Positions 11,002 to 20,000 of a DNA stretch of 20,000 bases are shown one piece after another (position 1 is the stretch's first letter; every line of letters starts with the position of its first letter). The stretch lies in IMG/VR virus record IMGVR_UViG_3300003322_000453. One strand, written 5' to 3'. Made by a program: the position numbers and the translations under genes. The stretch comes from an uncultured virus (IMG/VR IMGVR_UViG_3300003322_000453) (Duplodnaviria > Heunggongvirae > Uroviricota > Caudoviricetes). A model generated the notes under the pieces. The model did not search any database. It was not told the origin of the DNA and was given only the letters and a program-made list of their open reading frames with translations.

Positions 11002-11292
11002 ATGACCACCGCTAACGACTACAAACGACTAGAACTAAAACTAGCCGAGCTAAGTTCCATCACCGAACGGGTGGTTGAGAAAGTCGCTACTATGGATAGC
11101 AAAGTAGATAAGGTTTCCACTAAGCTAGATAATCTCCAAGACACTAAGGTAAATAATACAATAACCGACATAGCCGTGCTAAAGGAAAAGGTTTATAGAC
11201 TTCAATCCATAGTTTATGGGTCTATGTCGGTTATTGGTGTACAAGGGCTAGTTATTATAGGAGGGATTATATTATGGCTGGTGAAGAGATAG
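11002..11292 (+). CDS. XhlA-like coiled-coil protein with C-terminal TM (holin-like)
   Basis: About 65 aa of coiled coil followed by the hydrophobic tail IVYGSMSVIGVQGLVIIGGIILWLVKR, the usual XhlA-type architecture in phage lysis modules. Confidence 0.55.
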   Translation: MTTANDYKRLELKLAELSSITERVVEKVATMDSKVDKVSTKLDNLQDTKVNNTITDIAVLKEKVYRLQSIVYGSMSVIGVQGLVIIGGIILWLVKR

Positions 11293-11708
11293 ATTTAGAG
11301 GAGTTAAAAGCTAGGCTCCATAACCTTAGATTATCTATAGATAAAACCAGATGGACAGAGATGTTGGCGTCTAGTGTACCAGCTTTGTTAGTGGAAGAAA
11401 CTGGGTATATAATAGACGAAACTCCCTTGGCTGATGAGATGTTTGGATATATACAAGGGGAATTAAGAGGAAAGAATATTAAGGTTTTAATCCCAGATAG
11501 ATTTCATGAAATGCATGATGTTCACCTAGCTAGGTTCTGGGATGATCCTACAACTAGGAGTATGGGGAGTAGGTTTACTGAAGAAAGACCTATAAATATA
11601 GTAGGTAGAAAAAGAAAAGGAGAGGAAATAAGACTTGCTATAGGGTTATTTCCTCAGATGGTAGATGATGCTAGGTGCGTGTTGGTTACTTTCGCGGAGA
11701 GAATATAA
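11274..11708 (+). CDS. Stand-alone PAS-domain protein, FixL-like (possible heme sensor)
   Basis: ALLVEETGYI...ADEMFGY...ELRGKNIKVLIP...HDVHLARF...RSMG...IVGRKRKGEEIRLAIGL matches the PAS S-box/PAC pattern. It has its own AGGAGG RBS at 11259-11264. Confidence 0.85.
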   Translation: MAGEEIDLEELKARLHNLRLSIDKTRWTEMLASSVPALLVEETGYIIDETPLADEMFGYIQGELRGKNIKVLIPDRFHEMHDVHLARFWDDPTTRSMGSRFTEERPINIVGRKRKGEEIRLAIGLFPQMVDDARCVLVTFAERI

Positions 11709-12612: not shown

Positions 12613-15600
12613 CTAATCCATCTCCGCCATATTCTTACCTATCTTGCTATCAGCCGCACAGAAAAATCCATCCGGCATAGTTTCATTCTTTAACACTTCA
12701 CTTTTTCTCTCCATCACCTTCTTAACTTCCGATATACATTCATCTGCATCTTTAACTAATGGCTCATATACTAGACTATCATGTATAGTGTTAATAAGTC
12801 TAAACTTCTCATTCAATCCCATCTCTTCTAACAACAACATTGTCTCTCTCATGTGGTAATGCGCGTTATTAGAAACCGGAAACGCCAACGCCTGTTCTGC
12901 TTGCTCGCCTTTCTTAGTAGTAACAGTATTCCCAAACTTATCATACTTAACCTGACTTGCGCCAAAGAACCATCGCCTAGCACCATATGCACTTTGGATA
13001 AACCCCTTAGTATCTGCTTCTATAATAGTCCTAGCTTGCCACTGAAAGAGTTTAGGAAACAATCCCCTTACAACATCATAAACCGCCTTAACCTTTTTCT
13101 TCCCTGCCGCTTCTATTAACTTAACTATCTGCTCCTCAGTTGGATGTTTTCTAAAGCTTTTGGAGGCTAATATCTCCTCCCTAGTAGGTGAGAAATCTTC
13201 CATATACCGTTTAAAACATCCTTCTTCACTAAGGCCAAAGTTTATTCCATGTACAACATGCTTGATTTGATCATCTCTAAGCTTCTTATACTGCTTCTTG
13301 ATCTTTCCTAGGAACTCTACCAATTTCTCATCAGTCATTTCTAACGCCAGTTCTATACCCGGAAATCCTACAACATGGCCTGTAACAAAACTATGTGTGT
13401 CAAAACTAGCTATTCTAAGATAGGAAGAATCCATAGCAAGAAACCCCATCATTTTGTTATGGAATCCTCTGTAGTCTAATGAGACTAAAACCCTACCTTC
13501 TGTGGCTTCAATACATTCTTTAAACTTCTTAGCTAGTGTTGAGTGAACCGGGTAGTTTTGGACGTTAGGGTTACGGCTAGAAAGTTGACCGCTAGCAGGG
13601 CGGAAGGTATAGGTGGTGTGGATTCTATATTCATTCCTACTACATATACCACATTTAATAGTATATATCCCTTGTGAATCTCCCCCGTTTATATAATAAC
13701 CATTACATTGAGGATTACCACATCTTTCCTTGATTGCTTTATATCCATCAATATAAGTCCCCTTAATTTTAGAAAGCTCCTTAAACTCTACAATCAATCT
13801 ATATGCCTTGTTATTAGTTTTCTCCGCAAGCTTCTTTAACAATATCTTACTTGTAGAAACATTATCTTTCTTAGGACTCGCGTTCTTAAACCCCTCTATT
13901 TCTAACCTTGAGAATTCTGAGCCTAGTTCATTATCATAATCTCTTTTCAAACTAACCGTAAGCTTCCTCGCCAATTCCTCATGACCGTTATATTTTATAA
14001 GGTCTGAAACCTGATCCACACTATTAGGATTAAACTCCAACAGCTTAACCCATCTTCTTTCCACCCTAGCATCACTCTTATTAAACACCACTCCTAGCTT
14101 CATCAACTCTAACTCTTCTTTACTCAACTCGTTGCTTAAAACAAAATCCCTCTGCACAAACCCTGTTTCATTAAATATCCATTCCTCACTAGGCATCGCG
14201 TTAGATGTTCCCTCTTGAATCATATACCTCAACTTAGCTTGCTCCACTTCCTTTGGCACTCTCTTATACCCTTCAACCTTGTTAAGCTTCTCAAAACTAT
14301 CAGGGATATATTGTTTCAACTCTTCTCTTATCTCAAAACTCCTACCTCCTATAACCTTTCCTCTCTCATCCAATAGCTCTATCTCATCTCTAAACTTTTG
14401 TTGTTTCTCTACGTTGATAGGAAGCCCTCTAACCTGTATTTTCTCTAACACTGGCTTCAACTGTCTAACATAACGATCATAAGAATCCCACATCCCTCGC
14501 GCTTTCATTTTATCTGGTAATGAAGCCATGATATATTGTACGCTGGTGACATCAGCTATACCATAAAAGGGGAGGTTAGAACCAGAAAGATGTTTCCACG
14601 CAAAGGGGAAGCAATTTGATACTAATCCTCCTTCTGTGTAAAATCTATGCGTTGGATGATCTACAGTTATACAATATCTAGTATTATACTCTCTCAATAC
14701 TCCTGATTCCCTATAATCTTTTACAACAGCTGATACAAAATCTATCATTGGAACTTGTTTATCTAACCAGCCGTTATATCTACCTCTATACTTTTCTGGT
14801 AATTTTCTATACATAGAAGGAGGAACATATTGAGCTATTCTAGAGAAAAACTCATCTCTAGAATAAGTTCCTATATATGCTTGTTTTCCACTTTTATAAT
14901 TTCCTAATCTTACATTATTACCAAACTCATTTACTAGCCATTGCATGACTTCATCTACATTATATTGTTTCTTTATTGCAAGAGCTATAGTACCATCCCC
15001 CGACTTTCTATTATTAAACTTCTTCCAACTCCCATCATCACAATACCAGATAGCTAAGGCTGCATCAGATGGAGGAGGAACAAATCTTTTCACTCCATTA
15101 GGATAAAATTTGTTCCTCCAATAACTAGGAATTCTTACATAAAATGTGCAAGAAGTTCCATTTCCATTTGGTTGTATTGTAATATTATCTTCACTTAATC
15201 CAAAGTTTTTGGCTTTGGCTATAGCATAATCTAATTGAGTTGTAGAATGTAAGGTAGCTAGTTGATTATTTTCTCCTATATAGCTATCTCCTAGTATCAT
15301 CCCATGTATCAAATCTGTGTTACCAGAATTAGATAAGTATAATTTATCTCCTACTATCACATTCTCCGCTAGTTTCCAACCATCATTAACAAATATTTTA
15401 TGATCTGGTGTGCAATATATAGGCTGTTTGTGGCTATTAGTCCTTATAACTATCCATTTCTGTCCTTTGTTTTCTGTTTTGTGCCAGTCTGTTATATGCA
15501 CAGGAATTATGTTTCCATTTTCATCCATCCCTCTTATAGTTAATCTTAATTTCTTGTCCACTATTTCTTTAATAGTTAGAGACTCTCCTATATACTGAGG

Positions 15601-16650
15601 AATTTTTGTTGTAGCTGCTAAACAATAGAAACTCGCGGTGTATTGTAAGCCTATAGGAATATCCGCTTGAAAATGATGCTGCATCCACATAGTATCGTCT
15701 ACTCGTCCGTTGATTTTAAAGCCATTAGCACGTAGGATAGGATTATCAAAATCCCATACATTATGACCAGACTTAGGATTACTGCTAGCCAATATATCTT
15801 TAGCAATATCAATAAAGCTACCAGTATAGGGCAAAGCCATACCACTATATAAGCCGGTACTAAACTGGATTTGAGTAATTGTTTGTCCGTATTCTTCAAG
15901 TTCATCTTCTTCCTCTCCTGCACTTTTTTCTGTTTCAATATCGTAGCTTACTAACAAATCAGGAGAATTCTTAACCATCTTTAAGAAAACCTCTGCTTGT
16001 TCTATAGTTGGTTCTATATCATAGTTCTCTTTTAAATCTAAATCATTCAAGGGATCAAGAATATAATCCTTACCCTCACTAAGTTTTCCCTGTGCTAGAA
16101 AAACCGCCTTTAACAAATCCGTCATCAACACACCCATTAGGTGTAGGTTCCCTCGCATTACAAAACTTGGGTGATAAGAAGGCACTACTAATATATCAGG
16201 ATACCTAGAGCTTCTAAAAACATACCCCCTTATATTGGATATGTTCATCCTAAATCCTTCCAATCCTGTTAGATGTTTAAAAGGTAACGCCCCTAGTGCT
16301 AGAATAACCTTTGGTTTAAACTTATCTACAACATGATCGAAATATTGACGACAGTGATTGATTGCACTATATTCATACCAATCATCTAGCCGGTTCGATG
16401 GGGGCTGACACGCCGTCAGGTTCCACATCGCTAGAGAGTTTCTATTAATCCTAGCTCTTTGTAAAATGCGATGCAACATCCCCCCAGCTTGTGCTTGAGG
16501 TCTAAAAGGCAATCCGTCGTTTACTTCGTTATAACCTAAGCTTTCACCAACTACTAATAATGGTAAGGAGCCTGTGCCTTCTGGGATAGAGAAACCTTTT
16601 CCGATTTCTGCTAAAGGACATCCAGTACAAGAAGTGGGCTTAGTGAGCAT
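12613..16650 (-). CDS. polA: Family A DNA polymerase with N-terminal family-4 UDG-like domain, 3'-5' exonuclease and an intein (1345-aa precursor, about 1008 aa spliced)
   Basis: UDG: CxxC, GESLG, further Cys residues, YHPS. Exonuclease: YDIETE, GHNVWDFD, YGIAD. Polymerase: SGQLSSRNPNVQN, motif A LDYRGFH, motif B KHVVHGINFG, motif C IHDSLV. Confidence 0.93.
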   Translation of the reverse strand: MLTKPTSCTGCPLAEIGKGFSIPEGTGSLPLLVVGESLGYNEVNDGLPFRPQAQAGGMLHRILQRARINRNSLAMWNLTACQPPSNRLDDWYEYSAINHCRQYFDHVVDKFKPKVILALGALPFKHLTGLEGFRMNISNIRGYVFRSSRYPDILVVPSYHPSFVMRGNLHLMGVLMTDLLKAVFLAQGKLSEGKDYILDPLNDLDLKENYDIEPTIEQAEVFLKMVKNSPDLLVSYDIETEKSAGEEEDELEEYGQTITQIQFSTGLYSGMALPYTGSFIDIAKDILASSNPKSGHNVWDFDNPILRANGFKINGRVDDTMWMQHHFQADIPIGLQYTASFYCLAATTKIPQYIGESLTIKEIVDKKLRLTIRGMDENGNIIPVHITDWHKTENKGQKWIVIRTNSHKQPIYCTPDHKIFVNDGWKLAENVIVGDKLYLSNSGNTDLIHGMILGDSYIGENNQLATLHSTTQLDYAIAKAKNFGLSEDNITIQPNGNGTSCTFYVRIPSYWRNKFYPNGVKRFVPPPSDAALAIWYCDDGSWKKFNNRKSGDGTIALAIKKQYNVDEVMQWLVNEFGNNVRLGNYKSGKQAYIGTYSRDEFFSRIAQYVPPSMYRKLPEKYRGRYNGWLDKQVPMIDFVSAVVKDYRESGVLREYNTRYCITVDHPTHRFYTEGGLVSNCFPFAWKHLSGSNLPFYGIADVTSVQYIMASLPDKMKARGMWDSYDRYVRQLKPVLEKIQVRGLPINVEKQQKFRDEIELLDERGKVIGGRSFEIREELKQYIPDSFEKLNKVEGYKRVPKEVEQAKLRYMIQEGTSNAMPSEEWIFNETGFVQRDFVLSNELSKEELELMKLGVVFNKSDARVERRWVKLLEFNPNSVDQVSDLIKYNGHEELARKLTVSLKRDYDNELGSEFSRLEIEGFKNASPKKDNVSTSKILLKKLAEKTNNKAYRLIVEFKELSKIKGTYIDGYKAIKERCGNPQCNGYYINGGDSQGIYTIKCGICSRNEYRIHTTYTFRPASGQLSSRNPNVQNYPVHSTLAKKFKECIEATEGRVLVSLDYRGFHNKMMGFLAMDSSYLRIASFDTHSFVTGHVVGFPGIELALEMTDEKLVEFLGKIKKQYKKLRDDQIKHVVHGINFGLSEEGCFKRYMEDFSPTREEILASKSFRKHPTEEQIVKLIEAAGKKKVKAVYDVVRGLFPKLFQWQARTIIEADTKGFIQSAYGARRWFFGASQVKYDKFGNTVTTKKGEQAEQALAFPVSNNAHYHMRETMLLLEEMGLNEKFRLINTIHDSLVYEPLVKDADECISEVKKVMERKSEVLKNETMPDGFFCAADSKIGKNMAEMD
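14614..15624 (-). mobile_element. Intein (337 aa) with LAGLIDADG homing endonuclease, inside the polA exonuclease domain
   Basis: Starts CLAATTK (Cys343). Block B CTPDHKIF; LAGLIDADG-like helices LIHGMILGDSY and LAIWYCDDGS. Ends HRFYTEGGLVSN followed by extein Cys+1. Confidence 0.92.
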
Positions 16651-16665
16651 ACTATAATCCTCTCT

Positions 16666-17214
16666 TTATAATTTTGTACACGGAAAAGAGCAATATTCTT
16701 TTTGATTATATTTATCTGTTTCAAAAGTGTTCTTACATCCTCTACAAATTCTAGTAATTATCCTCCTCTTTTTGTTATATTCTTTCATATACTGTTTCCT
16801 ATCTTCTCTTAAATGTCTAGCTATAGGATTCTTTGGATGATGGTGTTTTGCATGATCTGACGCCGTTTTAATCTCTAGGTTATTAATATCATTATTAATG
16901 TAATTACCATCTATATGATGCACATGTTCATAAGATTCCAATTTTCTACCAACAAAATCTTCCATCAATTTTCTTGCTCTAGCTCTGTAAGCTCTCCAAC
17001 TATCGCTTTGTTCTAATTTACTACTGGCAAGTATAGCTGCATCTCTCCTGTTCCTAATTACATCAGCACATAGTATATGTATATAGCTATGGGAATATCC
17101 CAATTTTTCCGCTATCTCTCTTGTACTTAATCCATCCTCGTATAGAGATTCTATTAAATCCTTTGGAGCTATAGATTCTGAATGCCAGCGGTTGCCATGT
17201 TTGTGTTTTGTCAT
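16666..17214 (-). CDS. Free-standing HNH homing endonuclease with N-terminal HTH and C-terminal Zn ribbon
   Basis: HTH GLSTREIAEKLGYSHSYI; HNH HVHHIDGNYINNDINNL...DHAKHH; CRGC...YCSFPC. ATG at 17214 preferred over TTG at 17220. Confidence 0.85.
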   Translation of the reverse strand: MTKHKHGNRWHSESIAPKDLIESLYEDGLSTREIAEKLGYSHSYIHILCADVIRNRRDAAILASSKLEQSDSWRAYRARARKLMEDFVGRKLESYEHVHHIDGNYINNDINNLEIKTASDHAKHHHPKNPIARHLREDRKQYMKEYNKKRRIITRICRGCKNTFETDKYNQKEYCSFPCTKL

Positions 17215-17220
17215 AAACAA

Positions 17221-17264: not shown

Positions 17265-17588
17265 TTAAGCATTTTTGGTTCTCCTTTCCTCCAACCTAGT
17301 CCAGTAATCTAAAACTCTCTTTCTCTTATTACTCATGTGCATTCCATATTCATCCTTCTCTATTATCATATCCTCATCTACCATTAAATCAATTAACACT
17401 AAAAAATCCATTATCTCTTTCATCAGACATTCATAAGCACCTTCTTTATACGTTCCCTCTTCTGGTGGTATAATAGCTTCTGTAAGATCATCATTCCAGA
17501 ATCTAAGAAGCTTGTTAGTCATTTGTGCTACTTCAGAAGCTTCTTCTCCTAGAGTTGCGATTAGGTATTGTCTATATGTTAATGGCAT
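17265..17588 (-). CDS. MazG-like all-alpha NTP pyrophosphohydrolase
   Basis: LGEEASEVAQ...K.LRF...LMKEIMDF gives the EExxE...ExxD pattern; AGGAG RBS. Confidence 0.7.
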   Translation of the reverse strand: MPLTYRQYLIATLGEEASEVAQMTNKLLRFWNDDLTEAIIPPEEGTYKEGAYECLMKEIMDFLVLIDLMVDEDMIIEKDEYGMHMSNKRKRVLDYWTRLEERRTKNA

Positions 17589-17601: not shown

Positions 17602-17727
17602 TTAATATAAAATATAATTCCACCACATAATTGCTACCTTGAGTAGTAATGGAAGTATAAATGGAGTGAATAAAACCGTTATTATAGCTGAGATTAGTAT
17701 ATTTTGAACGTGGGACAGCTTTTTCAT
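17602..17727 (-). CDS. 41-aa small membrane protein (not in ORF track)
   Basis: MKKLSHVQNILISAIITVLFTPFILPLLLKVAIMWWNYILY. ATGA overlap with the J-domain gene stop; GGAG upstream. Confidence 0.65.
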   Translation of the reverse strand: MKKLSHVQNILISAIITVLFTPFILPLLLKVAIMWWNYILY

Positions 17728-18380
17728 TTTCCATCTCCTATGAATATTTTATGTCCAGCTAATATAGTACCTTTTATATTGTCCTTAGAATCAGAAAAAT
17801 CCTCTACCCCTTTATACTCCCTCAACTTCACCAAACACTCATCCAATAATTCCTCCGCCTCTCTCATCTGTTCTAGTCTCTCTTGCATCAACCTTAGCTT
17901 CTGTTCTCTTATCATATCAAAAAGATTTTCTCCATCTACACTTGTAGAGAAAACCTTACCTTCAAAACTCTTAGCCTTGTTAACCTCACCGTTCACCAAC
18001 CTTCTATCTCTATCTATATCTCCTTTCTTTTGTAGAATCAAACTCCTAACCTTGCTTATAACATCACGTCCGTTTGGTTTAAATCCCATAAAACTATCAT
18101 AAGCAGTAGCCATGAAGTTTAACAGGCTATCTCTAACTATTAACTCTTTAGGAGTCTTAGTAGCAAATCCTGTCTTATTAAAACTTTCTTTCTTTATAGG
18201 ATCACCTAGTATGGAGTAAGCCCTATTCAACTCTATCTGCATCTCCATAGCTTTTATCTTCTCATTCTCATCTTGAAACTTATCAGGATGCCATTGTTTT
18301 GAAAGTTTATAAAAAGCTTGTTTAATTTGCTTCTGTGTTGCAGTTGTTGGGAGTCCTAGAACTTCATAAGGGTTTTTCAT
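17724..18380 (-). CDS. J-domain (class C DnaJ-like) co-chaperone
   Basis: NPYEVLGL...IKQAFYKLSKQWHPDK...LNRAYSILGDP is a complete J domain with HPD. The C-terminus is helical, without G/F-rich or Zn-finger regions. Confidence 0.9.
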   Translation of the reverse strand: MKNPYEVLGLPTTATQKQIKQAFYKLSKQWHPDKFQDENEKIKAMEMQIELNRAYSILGDPIKKESFNKTGFATKTPKELIVRDSLLNFMATAYDSFMGFKPNGRDVISKVRSLILQKKGDIDRDRRLVNGEVNKAKSFEGKVFSTSVDGENLFDMIREQKLRLMQERLEQMREAEELLDECLVKLREYKGVEDFSDSKDNIKGTILAGHKIFIGDGK

Positions 18381-18798: not shown

Positions 18799-19539
18799 AT
18801 GAAAATCTCCATTGTTAAGTATATCCTCCTAACCCTAGTTTTACTTCTACTAACCTCACCACAAACCAAAGCAGCTATACAGTTTCAAGACAAAGCCACA
18901 TCCTTTGTTAATGGTTCAACTACCTTTACCGCAACGATTCCATATAATGTTACAAGCGAAGTTCTTATAGCTGTTATCAACCTAGATAATGTATCTCCAA
19001 ACTCAGCGGATCATTATAGAAACCCCACTATTACTAATAGCCCTACAGGGTGGGTTAAAATCATAGACAACAGTTTCTATGGTATAGATATTCATAGATC
19101 AGCTTGGTATAAATTAACCCCTGAGACAAATTCTACGGTTAGTTGGACTTTCGATCTTTCTGTTAAAGGAGAGATCACTATCCTTAGATACAGTGGTGTT
19201 GACCTTACAACCCCTATAACTAATTCTAGCTTCAGAAACGACTGGCAAAAGCTTAGTTCTCACCTTACAAATCCTATTAATGTAGACTTTGCAAACTCCT
19301 TAGTAGTCGGCTGTTGGTTTGCTTCTGATTTCTCATCCTCCTTCACCCTTACCTTTAACAGCAACCCCTTAGCTAACAGTAGGGAAAACATAACCGGCGA
19401 TTTGTTCCAACCCGATAGAGGGTTACTTATAGGAGATGAGATAGTAACCTCTACCGGGAGTTTTGGAGCTAAGACAGCTTATACTAATCATAATACCTTT
19501 GGACAGAGCGTTGTGCTGGTGTTGAAAGAGGCTACTTAG
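18799..19539 (+). CDS. Secreted beta-sandwich protein, moron-like and opposite in orientation to its neighbours
   Basis: Signal peptide MKISIVKYILLTLVLLLLTSPQTKA|A; segments VLIAVI...TNSPTGW...AWYK...YSGVD resemble surface/adhesin-type beta domains. 8-bp convergent overlap with thyX. Confidence 0.65.
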   Translation: MKISIVKYILLTLVLLLLTSPQTKAAIQFQDKATSFVNGSTTFTATIPYNVTSEVLIAVINLDNVSPNSADHYRNPTITNSPTGWVKIIDNSFYGIDIHRSAWYKLTPETNSTVSWTFDLSVKGEITILRYSGVDLTTPITNSSFRNDWQKLSSHLTNPINVDFANSLVVGCWFASDFSSSFTLTFNSNPLANSRENITGDLFQPDRGLLIGDEIVTSTGSFGAKTAYTNHNTFGQSVVLVLKEAT

Positions 19540-20000
19540 CCTCTTTATCAGTTGATCTAGGGCCATCAAATAACTTATAGGTCTTAGGGAATTGTTGTTT
19601 GATAATCTCCGCAACTGCGTTTGCATATTGTCTAATCTCCCATTGGGCGTTAGGAGCCATTCTAAGGGTTAGGAAGGCAAGCCAGTTGCGGAGATTTGCA
19701 CTAGCTCGCATACGGGAGTAGCGACCTACGGGGAGGATTATACGGGCTAATTCTTCCGGAATTCCATTGTCTAGCCCTACTTGATATAATGTTTGCAGTT
19801 GTTCATATACCTCTCTAACCTCTTGCTGCCAAGCTGTAATCTTAGCTAAGTCTAAGACTGTCATACCCTCTGCTTGCTTATTTCCCTTTTGTATATCAGC
19901 TATTCTAGTAGCTGTTGGGATATAGTTCAAATCTGGCAACGGCGCATATCTAGCACTCATCTCGTTATAAGATTGTGTCCGGTGACGGTGCCACTCTCTA
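19532..20000 (-). CDS. thyX: Flavin-dependent thymidylate synthase, 5'-truncated by the window edge
   Basis: Frame is open to the window end and reads REWHRHRTQSYNEMSARY (RHRx7S motif), then ELARIILP, NLRNWLAFLTLR and AQWEIR. Confidence 0.95.
   Translation of the reverse strand, partial: REWHRHRTQSYNEMSARYAPLPDLNYIPTATRIADIQKGNKQAEGMTVLDLAKITAWQQEVREVYEQLQTLYQVGLDNGIPEELARIILPVGRYSRMRASANLRNWLAFLTLRMAPNAQWEIRQYANAVAEIIKQQFPKTYKLFDGPRSTDKEAK

Follow-up and report, generated by a model that had tools for sequence, protein, structure and literature searches.

Can a family A DNA polymerase (PolA) copy an ordinary genome when its steric-gate glutamate is replaced by histidine and the arginine of its TGR motif by glutamine? 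This question is raised by a stretch of 20,000 nucleotides from an uncultured tailed virus (Caudoviricetes; IMG/VR record IMGVR_UViG_3300003322_000453), which was analyzed at its full length and is called the window here. On the minus strand, positions 12613..16650 of the window hold an open reading frame (ORF) of 1345 aa for a fusion of a uracil-DNA glycosylase from family 4 (UDG4), a 3'-5' exonuclease and a family A DNA polymerase, with an intein, as identified by Pfam, NCBIfam and a fold match. A sequence-only reading of this DNA had proposed that steric gate and minor-groove contacts were replaced together at six positions, that this marks a distinct PolA clade rather than decay, and that a non-canonical DNA system might be involved. 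To judge from the sequences analyzed here, the His-Gln pocket looks like a natural alternative design, with an enzyme that seems fully active and phage DNA that seems ordinary. Within family A, the gate Glu and the Arg of the TGR motif are regarded as nearly invariant, and engineers seeking acceptance of RNA or xeno nucleic acids target them. A natural clade that copies whole genomes with His and Gln at these positions would thus offer a ready-made test of how sugars and base pairs are selected when the carboxylate network is missing, and engineers would gain a new scaffold.

A distinct clade with glutamine and histidine in the pocket

Based on HMMER pairwise alignments with Klenow for the TGR motif, motif A, motif 6 and motif C, which are gapless at the residues listed here, Q1022 (codon 13585..13587, minus strand as for all polymerase features) replaces R668, and H1064 (13459..13461) replaces the steric gate E710. 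The catalytic Asp of motif A, D705, is intact as D1059 (13474..13476). The register of motif B (13237..13263) was taken from a multiple alignment that included 38-40 bacterial Pol I proteins and canonical PolA sequences of phages rather than from the HMMER pairwise alignment. It retains K758 as K1130 (13261-13263) and places H1134 (13249-13251) at 762 and F1138 (13237-13239) at 766. Motif 6 (12868..12885) has A1256 at N845 (12883-12885), S1260 at Q849 (12871-12873) and N1261 at G850, and motif C (12775..12783) reads H-D-S at residues 1290-1292, with D882 intact and Ser at 883. The substitutions named in the sequence-only reading are therefore real, each residue being found at its codon and in register with Klenow. 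A shifted register was ruled out by the HMMER and multiple alignments and by the alignment used for the tree. Contigs of one public sequencing run span all motif codons and show no differences there, although this run is possibly the source of the record and not independent of it.

With the polymerase domain as query, 69 proteins were found; 29 of them, among these the protein of the window, scored at least 127 bits, and nearly all of the 29 are metagenomic UDG-PolA fusions. A profile made from 24 of these proteins gave at least 150 matches among 1.84 billion representatives clustered at 50% identity, and the weakest match listed still scored 741 bits, indicating that the edge of the clade was not reached. 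All clade counts below refer to 174 distinct proteins among the matches listed. Q668 and H710 are both present in 174 of 174, and since these proteins mostly share less than 50% identity with one another, the two residues reflect neither chance nor sequencing error. The catalytic and triphosphate-binding residues are retained as well (D705 in 174, D882 and H734 in 173 each, R754 and H881 in 172 each, and K758 in 170), as are those of the exonuclease (in sequence order, D in 171, E in 170, D in 169, Y in 170 and D in 170). Other pocket positions vary. Position 762 is L in 138, H in 29 and F in 4 proteins; 766 is F in 112, L in 32, N in 24 and Y in 5; 845 is A in 149 and S in 21; 849 is A in 95, Q in 37 and S in 35; and 850 is N in 122 and S in 29. 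The combination found in the window, H/F/A/S at 762/766/845/849, occurs in only 12 of the proteins.

In a tree of 97 rows, made with a quick IQ-TREE run with the motif columns kept in, and supported by the Shimodaira-Hasegawa-like approximate likelihood ratio test (SH-aLRT) only, the 52 clade proteins that were sampled are monophyletic (52/52, SH-aLRT 100) on a stem of 1.08 changes per column. No cultured phage polymerase exceeded about 29% identity to the enzyme of the window. The polymerase gene was found at 40 IMG/VR loci, and the relatives are uncultured phages; of the 28 genomes analyzed, which measure 55-100 kb, 26 are 90% complete or more, and the closest relative (G001) is syntenic with the window. 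Because Q668 and H710 are fixed and the catalytic and proofreading residues are intact, together with those of the UDG, the proposal of a distinct PolA clade rather than decay holds, and the sequences support a clade that is under selection.

The changes in the pocket do not form one set. Next to the clade in the tree (SH-aLRT 94) stands another family of uncultured UDG-PolA proteins (the P0033 family), near phage vir526 and the Microcystis phage Mel-JY34. Among 120 UDG-PolA relatives with a canonical gate, R668 and E710 are each present in 120, Y766 in 114 and Q849 in 119, and the same proteins have H762 in 82, L762 in 38, S845 in 117 and S883 in 107. As these relatives carry them too, F762H, a small residue at 845 and the HDS of motif C are not part of the rewiring, and H762, A845 and HDS are, on the sequences compared, older traits of the wider UDG-PolA group. 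Within the clade, the predominance of Leu at 762 (138/174) likewise speaks against one coordinated set of six positions. What remains of the proposed coordinated change is the gate Glu with its hydrogen-bonding partners at 668, 766 and 849. The clade-specific core consists of E710H and R668Q, both fixed, loss of the hydroxyl at 766, a relaxed 849 and a common Asn at 850. The possibility that the variants are common in characterized UDG-PolA enzymes applies to 762, 845 and 883, but not to 668 and 710, where R and E are found in six of seven named phage polymerases and R and D in the seventh, that of Mel-JY34.

Over 421 aligned rows, the pairs at 668/710 are QH in 197, RE in 153, RQ in 23 and RD in 1, with 47 rows gapped and neither QE nor RH among them. 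Bacterial Pol I hits have R668 in 38 of 38. We also observed metagenomic bacterial-type Pol I proteins of about 923 aa (P0035, P0040-P0047 and others; 23 of the 38 bacterial hits) that combine a Gln gate with a retained R668 and a Ser after F762. Given Gln in these proteins and Asp in Mel-JY34, the gate Glu is not strictly universal. The states of position 762 (B3) have been given as F, Y or L (PMC10201439; bioRxiv 10.64898/2026.05.20.726624); His is added to these here, which matters for 762 as a marker in viral metagenomics, and this position proves to be decoupled from the gate. We found no published description of a His-gate PolA clade in a search of mainly open-access papers, and no cluster with His at the gate among the PolA clusters described in passages of PMC10201439, the sequence lists and logos of which could hold unclustered members. 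This work newly separates old changes (at 762, 845 and 883) from those specific to the clade, and it adds the palindrome test and a primase survey with controls.

Domain organization and comparison with known polymerases

In the 1345-aa ORF, Pfam recognizes DNA_pol_A (PF00476, above the cut-off, 3.7e-24), UDG (1.6e-14), LAGLIDADG_2 and Intein_splicing, and NCBIfam recognizes UDG_fam4 (2.6e-22). The product is likely to be the replicase of the phage. The UDG4 domain (aa 6-180, 16111..16635) contains the iron-sulfur cysteines and the His-Pro motif and is probably active, as judged on these motifs; across the clade the Cys residues are present in 149, 149 and 165 proteins, the His in 160 and the Pro in 165, and the misses are mostly gaps. 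Of the proofreading exonuclease, ExoI D237/E239 and ExoII D302 (15745..15942) precede the intein and ExoIII D700 (14551-14553) lies C-terminal to it. The LAGLIDADG intein itself, identified by Pfam, NCBIfam and residue positions, spans C343-N679 (14614..15624) within the exonuclease domain, ahead of a conserved Cys. This +1 Cys is present in 85% of the clade. Homologues without an intein are 860-1070 aa long; one intein-free clade member that has the pocket residues of the window, P0004, shares 71% identity with it across the polymerase domain. Thirty-nine of the 174 clade proteins exceed 1150 aa, many of them with intein-like inserts at conserved motifs; such inserts were seen at the exonuclease, the TGR region and the O-helix (homologues P0013, P0026 and P0029-P0031).

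An AlphaFold2 model of the 666 residues after the intein, computed from an 84-row alignment (predicted local distance difference test score 90), had Klenow as its top structural match among 48,161 representative chains (Z 27.8, root-mean-square deviation 4.0, 433 residues aligned). The leading matches of the model, Klenow, Pol nu and apPol, indicate a palm, fingers and thumb fold of the Klenow type, and a viral structure library gave no hit above 17% identity.

With Klenow (PolA cluster 1 in PMC10201439), the enzyme of the window shares D705, D882, K758, R754, H734, H881 and the 3'-5' exonuclease motifs, but it differs by R668Q, E710H, Y766F, N845A, Q849S, F762H and E883S at 19-21% identity, and has an N-terminal UDG4 where the parent Pol I of Klenow has a 5' nuclease. 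The order of an N-terminal family 4 UDG with catalytic motifs, exonuclease and polymerase is that of SPO1-like UDG-PolA proteins (PMC10201439, PMC13697223). Unlike the window, the cultured phages YungSlug, HSE3, RHph_TM39 and KarBoss keep R668/E710/F762/Y766, and YungSlug and HSE3 fall outside the clade in the tree, from which SPO1, SP-15 and YerA41 sequences were left out. The modified-thymine pathway of T-modified SPO1/SP15-like phages was not found in the relatives, in which the thymidylate synthase family was found in 0 of 28 genomes and palindrome use is T7-like (see below). N4-like UDG-PolA proteins (cluster 17 in PMC10201439) share the UDG-exonuclease-PolA architecture in phages of about 70 kb, but their UDG is described as degenerate and their B3 residue (762) as Phe, whereas the UDG motifs are kept in the window and the clade has His or Leu at 762; N4-like KPP21 has R668/E710/F762/Y766 and lies outside the clade. 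The SP15-like phages YerA41 and phiLo have an active UDG fused to PolA (PMC13697223), a feature that the window shares as judged by motifs. Their enzymes match the model of the window more weakly (Z 14.8 and 12.2), have Phe762 and large inserts, and occur in T-hypermodified genomes that also encode Pol X and ligase (PMC13697223), neither of which was found in the scanned relatives. DpoZ of phiVC8 shares the PolA fold (Z 20.9), the HDS of motif C and a residue other than Tyr at 766, but retains Arg in the TGR motif and Glu in motif A, lacks a UDG and is accompanied by purZ, which was found in 0 of 28 relatives of the window. CcPol-MP and other PolA-SSB primases and TV-Pols (PMC7581432, PMC10061031) share a PolA with a primase-less helicase and a gene like those for single-stranded DNA-binding proteins (SSB); however, they are described as truncated and located on genomic islands, whereas the window encodes a full UDG-exonuclease-polymerase in a tailed phage. 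The canonical-gate P0033 family, nearest in the tree, shares H/L762, S845, HDS, phage genomes of 55-70 kb and the lack of a detected primase, but keeps R668/E710 and mostly Y766 and Q849. In summary of these comparisons, the enzyme resembles replicases of the Pol I type, its domains are ordered as in SPO1-like UDG-PolA proteins, and it does not fit the N4-like, T-modified SPO1/SP15-like or DpoZ systems.

A possible mechanism of the pocket and its alternatives

The gate carboxylate of family A polymerases forms hydrogen bonds with the Tyr of motif B, the Gln of motif 6 and the Arg of the TGR motif (PMC6158600, PMC10520511). Glu710, held in this way by Arg668, the Tyr766 hydroxyl and Gln849, blocks the 2'-OH of an incoming nucleotide in canonical PolA. 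On the stem of the clade, the charged Glu-Arg pair was exchanged for a neutral His-Gln pair, one change probably compensating for the other. The His probably still occupies the space under C2' and would have enough bulk to block a 2'-OH, thus acting as a sugar gate, and minor-groove reading may have been taken over by Gln668, perhaps together with Asn850. Left without an acceptor, the Tyr hydroxyl and Gln849 would have been free to drift, to F, L or N at 766 and to A, S or Q at 849. That 668 and 710 are fixed while 766 and 849 vary is the pattern expected of a swapped hub with released partners. Gate substitutions that admit ribonucleoside triphosphates (rNTPs) are small, as in the E-to-G changes of Pol theta and Taq (PMC6158600), and T7 RNA polymerase has Gly at the gate position, along with HDS in motif C. 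Since rNTP admission goes with small gates and His is bulky, this supports His as a blocking gate; His760 is also the modeled gate of Escherichia coli Pol III (PMC8485763). We infer from these sequences that the His serves as the gate, that it contacts the Gln and that selectivity is near normal. With moderate confidence, we favor an active, proofreading, replicative PolA for ordinary A/C/G/T DNA in which the hydrogen-bond network around the nascent base pair is rebuilt and His acts as the sugar gate.

Several points weigh against this interpretation. The His gate of Pol III belongs to a fold unrelated to PolA. In Klenow, fidelity falls when R668, E710 or N845 is changed singly (PMC10520511), and E615 of Taq tolerates mainly conservative changes (PMC6158600), so that selectivity may in fact differ. 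Since Q668 and H710 go back to a single event on a long stem, their perfect association is no proof of co-evolution; moreover, the search profile and the DNA patterns were made from Q/H sequences and are biased against intermediates. The genome of the window was judged on its 20 kb of a 71-kb contig. Finally, glycosyl- or methyltransferase genes are present in 7 of 15 relatives, 6 of the 7 on the strand of the virion genes, and none was found in the closest relative.

It is thus worth considering that these phages use ordinary bases with a changed selectivity, in the form of rNTP tolerance or a lower fidelity suited to hosts with few deoxyribonucleoside triphosphates, with exonuclease and UDG cleaning up. 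In model enzymes, the check on sugar or base becomes weaker with the loss of the carboxylate, of the Tyr766 hydroxyl or of the aromatic ring at 762 (PMC10520511, PMC6158600, bioRxiv 10.64898/2026.05.20.726624), and no ribonucleotide reductase was found in a Pfam scan of 575 ORFs of 90-1000 aa from 15 relative genomes, a scan that left out longer ORFs, one short ORF and, for 13 genomes, the core clusters, some representatives of which were scanned separately. But His is bulky, unlike the known rNTP-permissive substitutions, the same scan showed no RNase H gene, the proofreading residues are invariant, and H/L762 coexists with a canonical gate in the relatives; we consider a changed selectivity rather unlikely. 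An inactive or decaying polymerase, retained for its UDG or exonuclease domain, could account for the simultaneous absence of several near-invariant residues. This explanation is exceedingly improbable in view of metal- and triphosphate-binding residues kept in 170-174 of 174 very divergent proteins and of the intein-like inserts that many of the 39 long clade proteins carry at conserved motifs. In addition, no second DNA polymerase was seen among the scanned ORFs, and the gene adjoins genes for a helicase and an SSB-like protein.

The residues that differ lie along the minor-groove and sugar face (PMC10520511, PMC6158600), and other UDG-PolA enzymes come from T-modified phages (PMC13697223, PMC10201439). 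The pocket might accordingly be an adaptation to a nucleotide whose base or sugar carries a modification facing the minor groove, supplied with the help of MazG, thyX and UDG, as the sequence-only reading had suggested for the genes near the polymerase; as most genes of these phages belong to no family, such a pathway could be missed. Yet profile searches of the 28 relatives found purZ in none (controls 14/14), the thymidylate synthase family (thyA) in none (controls 10/14), with no gene of the dUMP hydroxymethylase type, and thyX in none (controls 5/14). Nucleotide-related Pfam hits in the 575 ORFs were limited to a single dUTPase, a single dNMP kinase and two DNA methyltransferases, each methyltransferase in a different relative, which also argues against a non-canonical nucleotide, and no reductase or deaminase was among them. 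The genes common to most relatives serve replication, recombination and the virion. In the window, the 3' part of thyX (19532..19999, minus strand, running past the window end; Pfam Thy1 1.1e-30) would serve ordinary dTMP synthesis, and a MazG-like NTP pyrophosphohydrolase (17265..17588, minus strand; phrog_4856, E 9.6e-7) falls into no multi-locus cluster across the 40 relative loci. With thyX absent from the relatives and the MazG-like gene unclustered, both are accessories. An active UDG together with thyX also argues against DNA containing dU.

Avoidance of palindromes is a mark of exposure to restriction enzymes, and of the reference phages T7 has ordinary and T4 modified bases. We compared the occurrence of 6-mer palindromes containing both A/T and G/C with a Markov expectation. 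The observed/expected ratio was 0.53 for the window and 0.24-0.77 (mean 0.56) for 15 relatives, compared to 0.56 for T7, 0.88 for phiVC8, 0.94 for T4 (40 kb) and 0.96 for YerA41 (40 kb). Although these four references are few, the T7-like avoidance suggests unmodified DNA. That Arg and Glu are kept in DpoZ and in the cultured UDG-PolA enzymes also speaks against such an adaptation. A non-canonical DNA system in the clade phages is unlikely, and a pocket adapted to a modified nucleotide is very improbable.

Initiation of DNA synthesis in the wider UDG-PolA group

A primase is encoded by 98% of polymerase-encoding viruses according to PMC4889955. In six-frame searches with four primase families, we detected a primase in only 1 of 28 clade genomes, an archaeo-eukaryotic primase (AEP) in G020; the remaining 27 gave no match, and the 575 scanned ORFs contained none besides this AEP. 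As detection controls, 6 of 10 named PolA phages were positive with three of the families, KPP21, YerA41, vir526 and Mel-JY34 being missed, and 1 of 5 unrelated IMG/VR phages was positive with two families, three of the five being incomplete. Two of the misses, vir526 and Mel-JY34, group with the clade in the tree. A link between the Q/H pocket and primase loss was ruled out, because 18 canonical-gate UDG-PolA genomes (G029-G046, loci L099-L132) also gave no match with the four families. The loss of the primase thus seems to characterize the wider UDG-PolA group as a whole, in which no primase was detected in 45 of 46 genomes. This apparent absence is an exception to the reported 98% rule and raises the question of how synthesis starts.

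A candidate initiator gene is present in 14 of 15 relatives, mostly upstream of the gene for a Cas4-like nuclease. It encodes an MCM-like ATPase in four genomes, an AAA_25 protein in four, a D5-like protein in one, a Rep_1-like protein in two and an unassigned Rep-like candidate in three. Matches of the D5-like and AAA_25 proteins to primase-helicase PHROGs are confined to the helicase part, and the ATPase of G001 matches by structure the larger part of proteins fused to TOPRIM and Prim-Pol domains. Rep_1-like genes occupy the helicase slot at L082:10485-11384 (G021) and L092:1195-2271 (G018), with further candidates in G003, G006 and G010, and the G021 protein matches Rep_1, a rolling-circle initiator fold, by features and structure. 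The initiator slot would be an interchangeable cassette, filled by Rep_1-like or by MCM-like, AAA_25 or D5-like proteins. Genes found in 12-14 of the 15 relatives include those for the Cas4-like nuclease, a Sak4-like ATPase, a Pif1-like helicase and virion proteins, as well as a protein without a family hit that we presume from its position to be SSB-like. In the canonical-gate family G029-G046, a stand-alone ATPase of 250-405 aa lies 3' of the polymerase in most loci. The UDG-PolA of Mel-JY34 (L174:1474-3906), with D710 and H762, is followed by a stand-alone DUF3987 gene, and Mel-JY34, a cultured cyanophage, could serve as a culturable model for the priming question.

These observations allow for a self-priming replicase that starts chains de novo, alone or with SSB or helicase, in the manner of CcPol-MP, the neutral pocket seating the initiating nucleotide. 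Apart from the near absence of primase matches against the 98% rule, and the detection of these families in 6 of 10 named PolA phages, with two of the misses grouping with the clade, this proposal draws on helicases that are usually fused to a primase but stand alone in the relatives, and on the precedent of priming by PolA-SSB primases (PMC7581432, PMC10061031). However, the canonical-gate genomes likewise lack a primase match and have stand-alone helicases, which argues against a role of the pocket, and one clade genome has an AEP. Other sources of primers are conceivable, such as nicking by the Rep_1-like protein in G021 and G018, the host primase, or recombination through the Sak4-like, Cas4-like and Pif1-like proteins present in 13-14 of 15 relatives, and the misses of KPP21, YerA41 and most of the unrelated IMG/VR phages indicate that the searches overlook divergent primases. 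Self-priming by means of the pocket is thus quite unlikely. The broader version, a primase-free replisome in which a proofreading UDG-PolA starts synthesis itself with SSB or helicase, as a trait of the wider H/L762 group to which His710 and Gln668 were later tuning, is unlikely as well. If true, at least 150 sequence clusters of uncultured phages would share a family A replicase that primes itself, proofreads and has a sugar gate other than a carboxylate.

Among the neighboring genes of the window, an HTH-HNH (helix-turn-helix) homing endonuclease gene (16666-17220, minus strand) lies directly upstream of the polymerase, and a DnaJ-domain gene (17724-18380, minus strand) is also present in G001. 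An ORF of 246 aa (18799-19539, plus strand) with a signal-peptide-like start is found among the early genes but on the other strand, flanked by DnaJ and thyX, and has no Pfam or NCBIfam match. A stand-alone PAS-domain protein (11274-11708, plus strand; TIGR00229, 25.8 bits at a cut-off of 22.9), unusual for a phage, closes the late operon and is shared with G001. Genes of the Acb2/Tad1 type, encoding anti-defence hairpin proteins, are present in G001 (L042:1655-1927) and in G009, G014 and G024.

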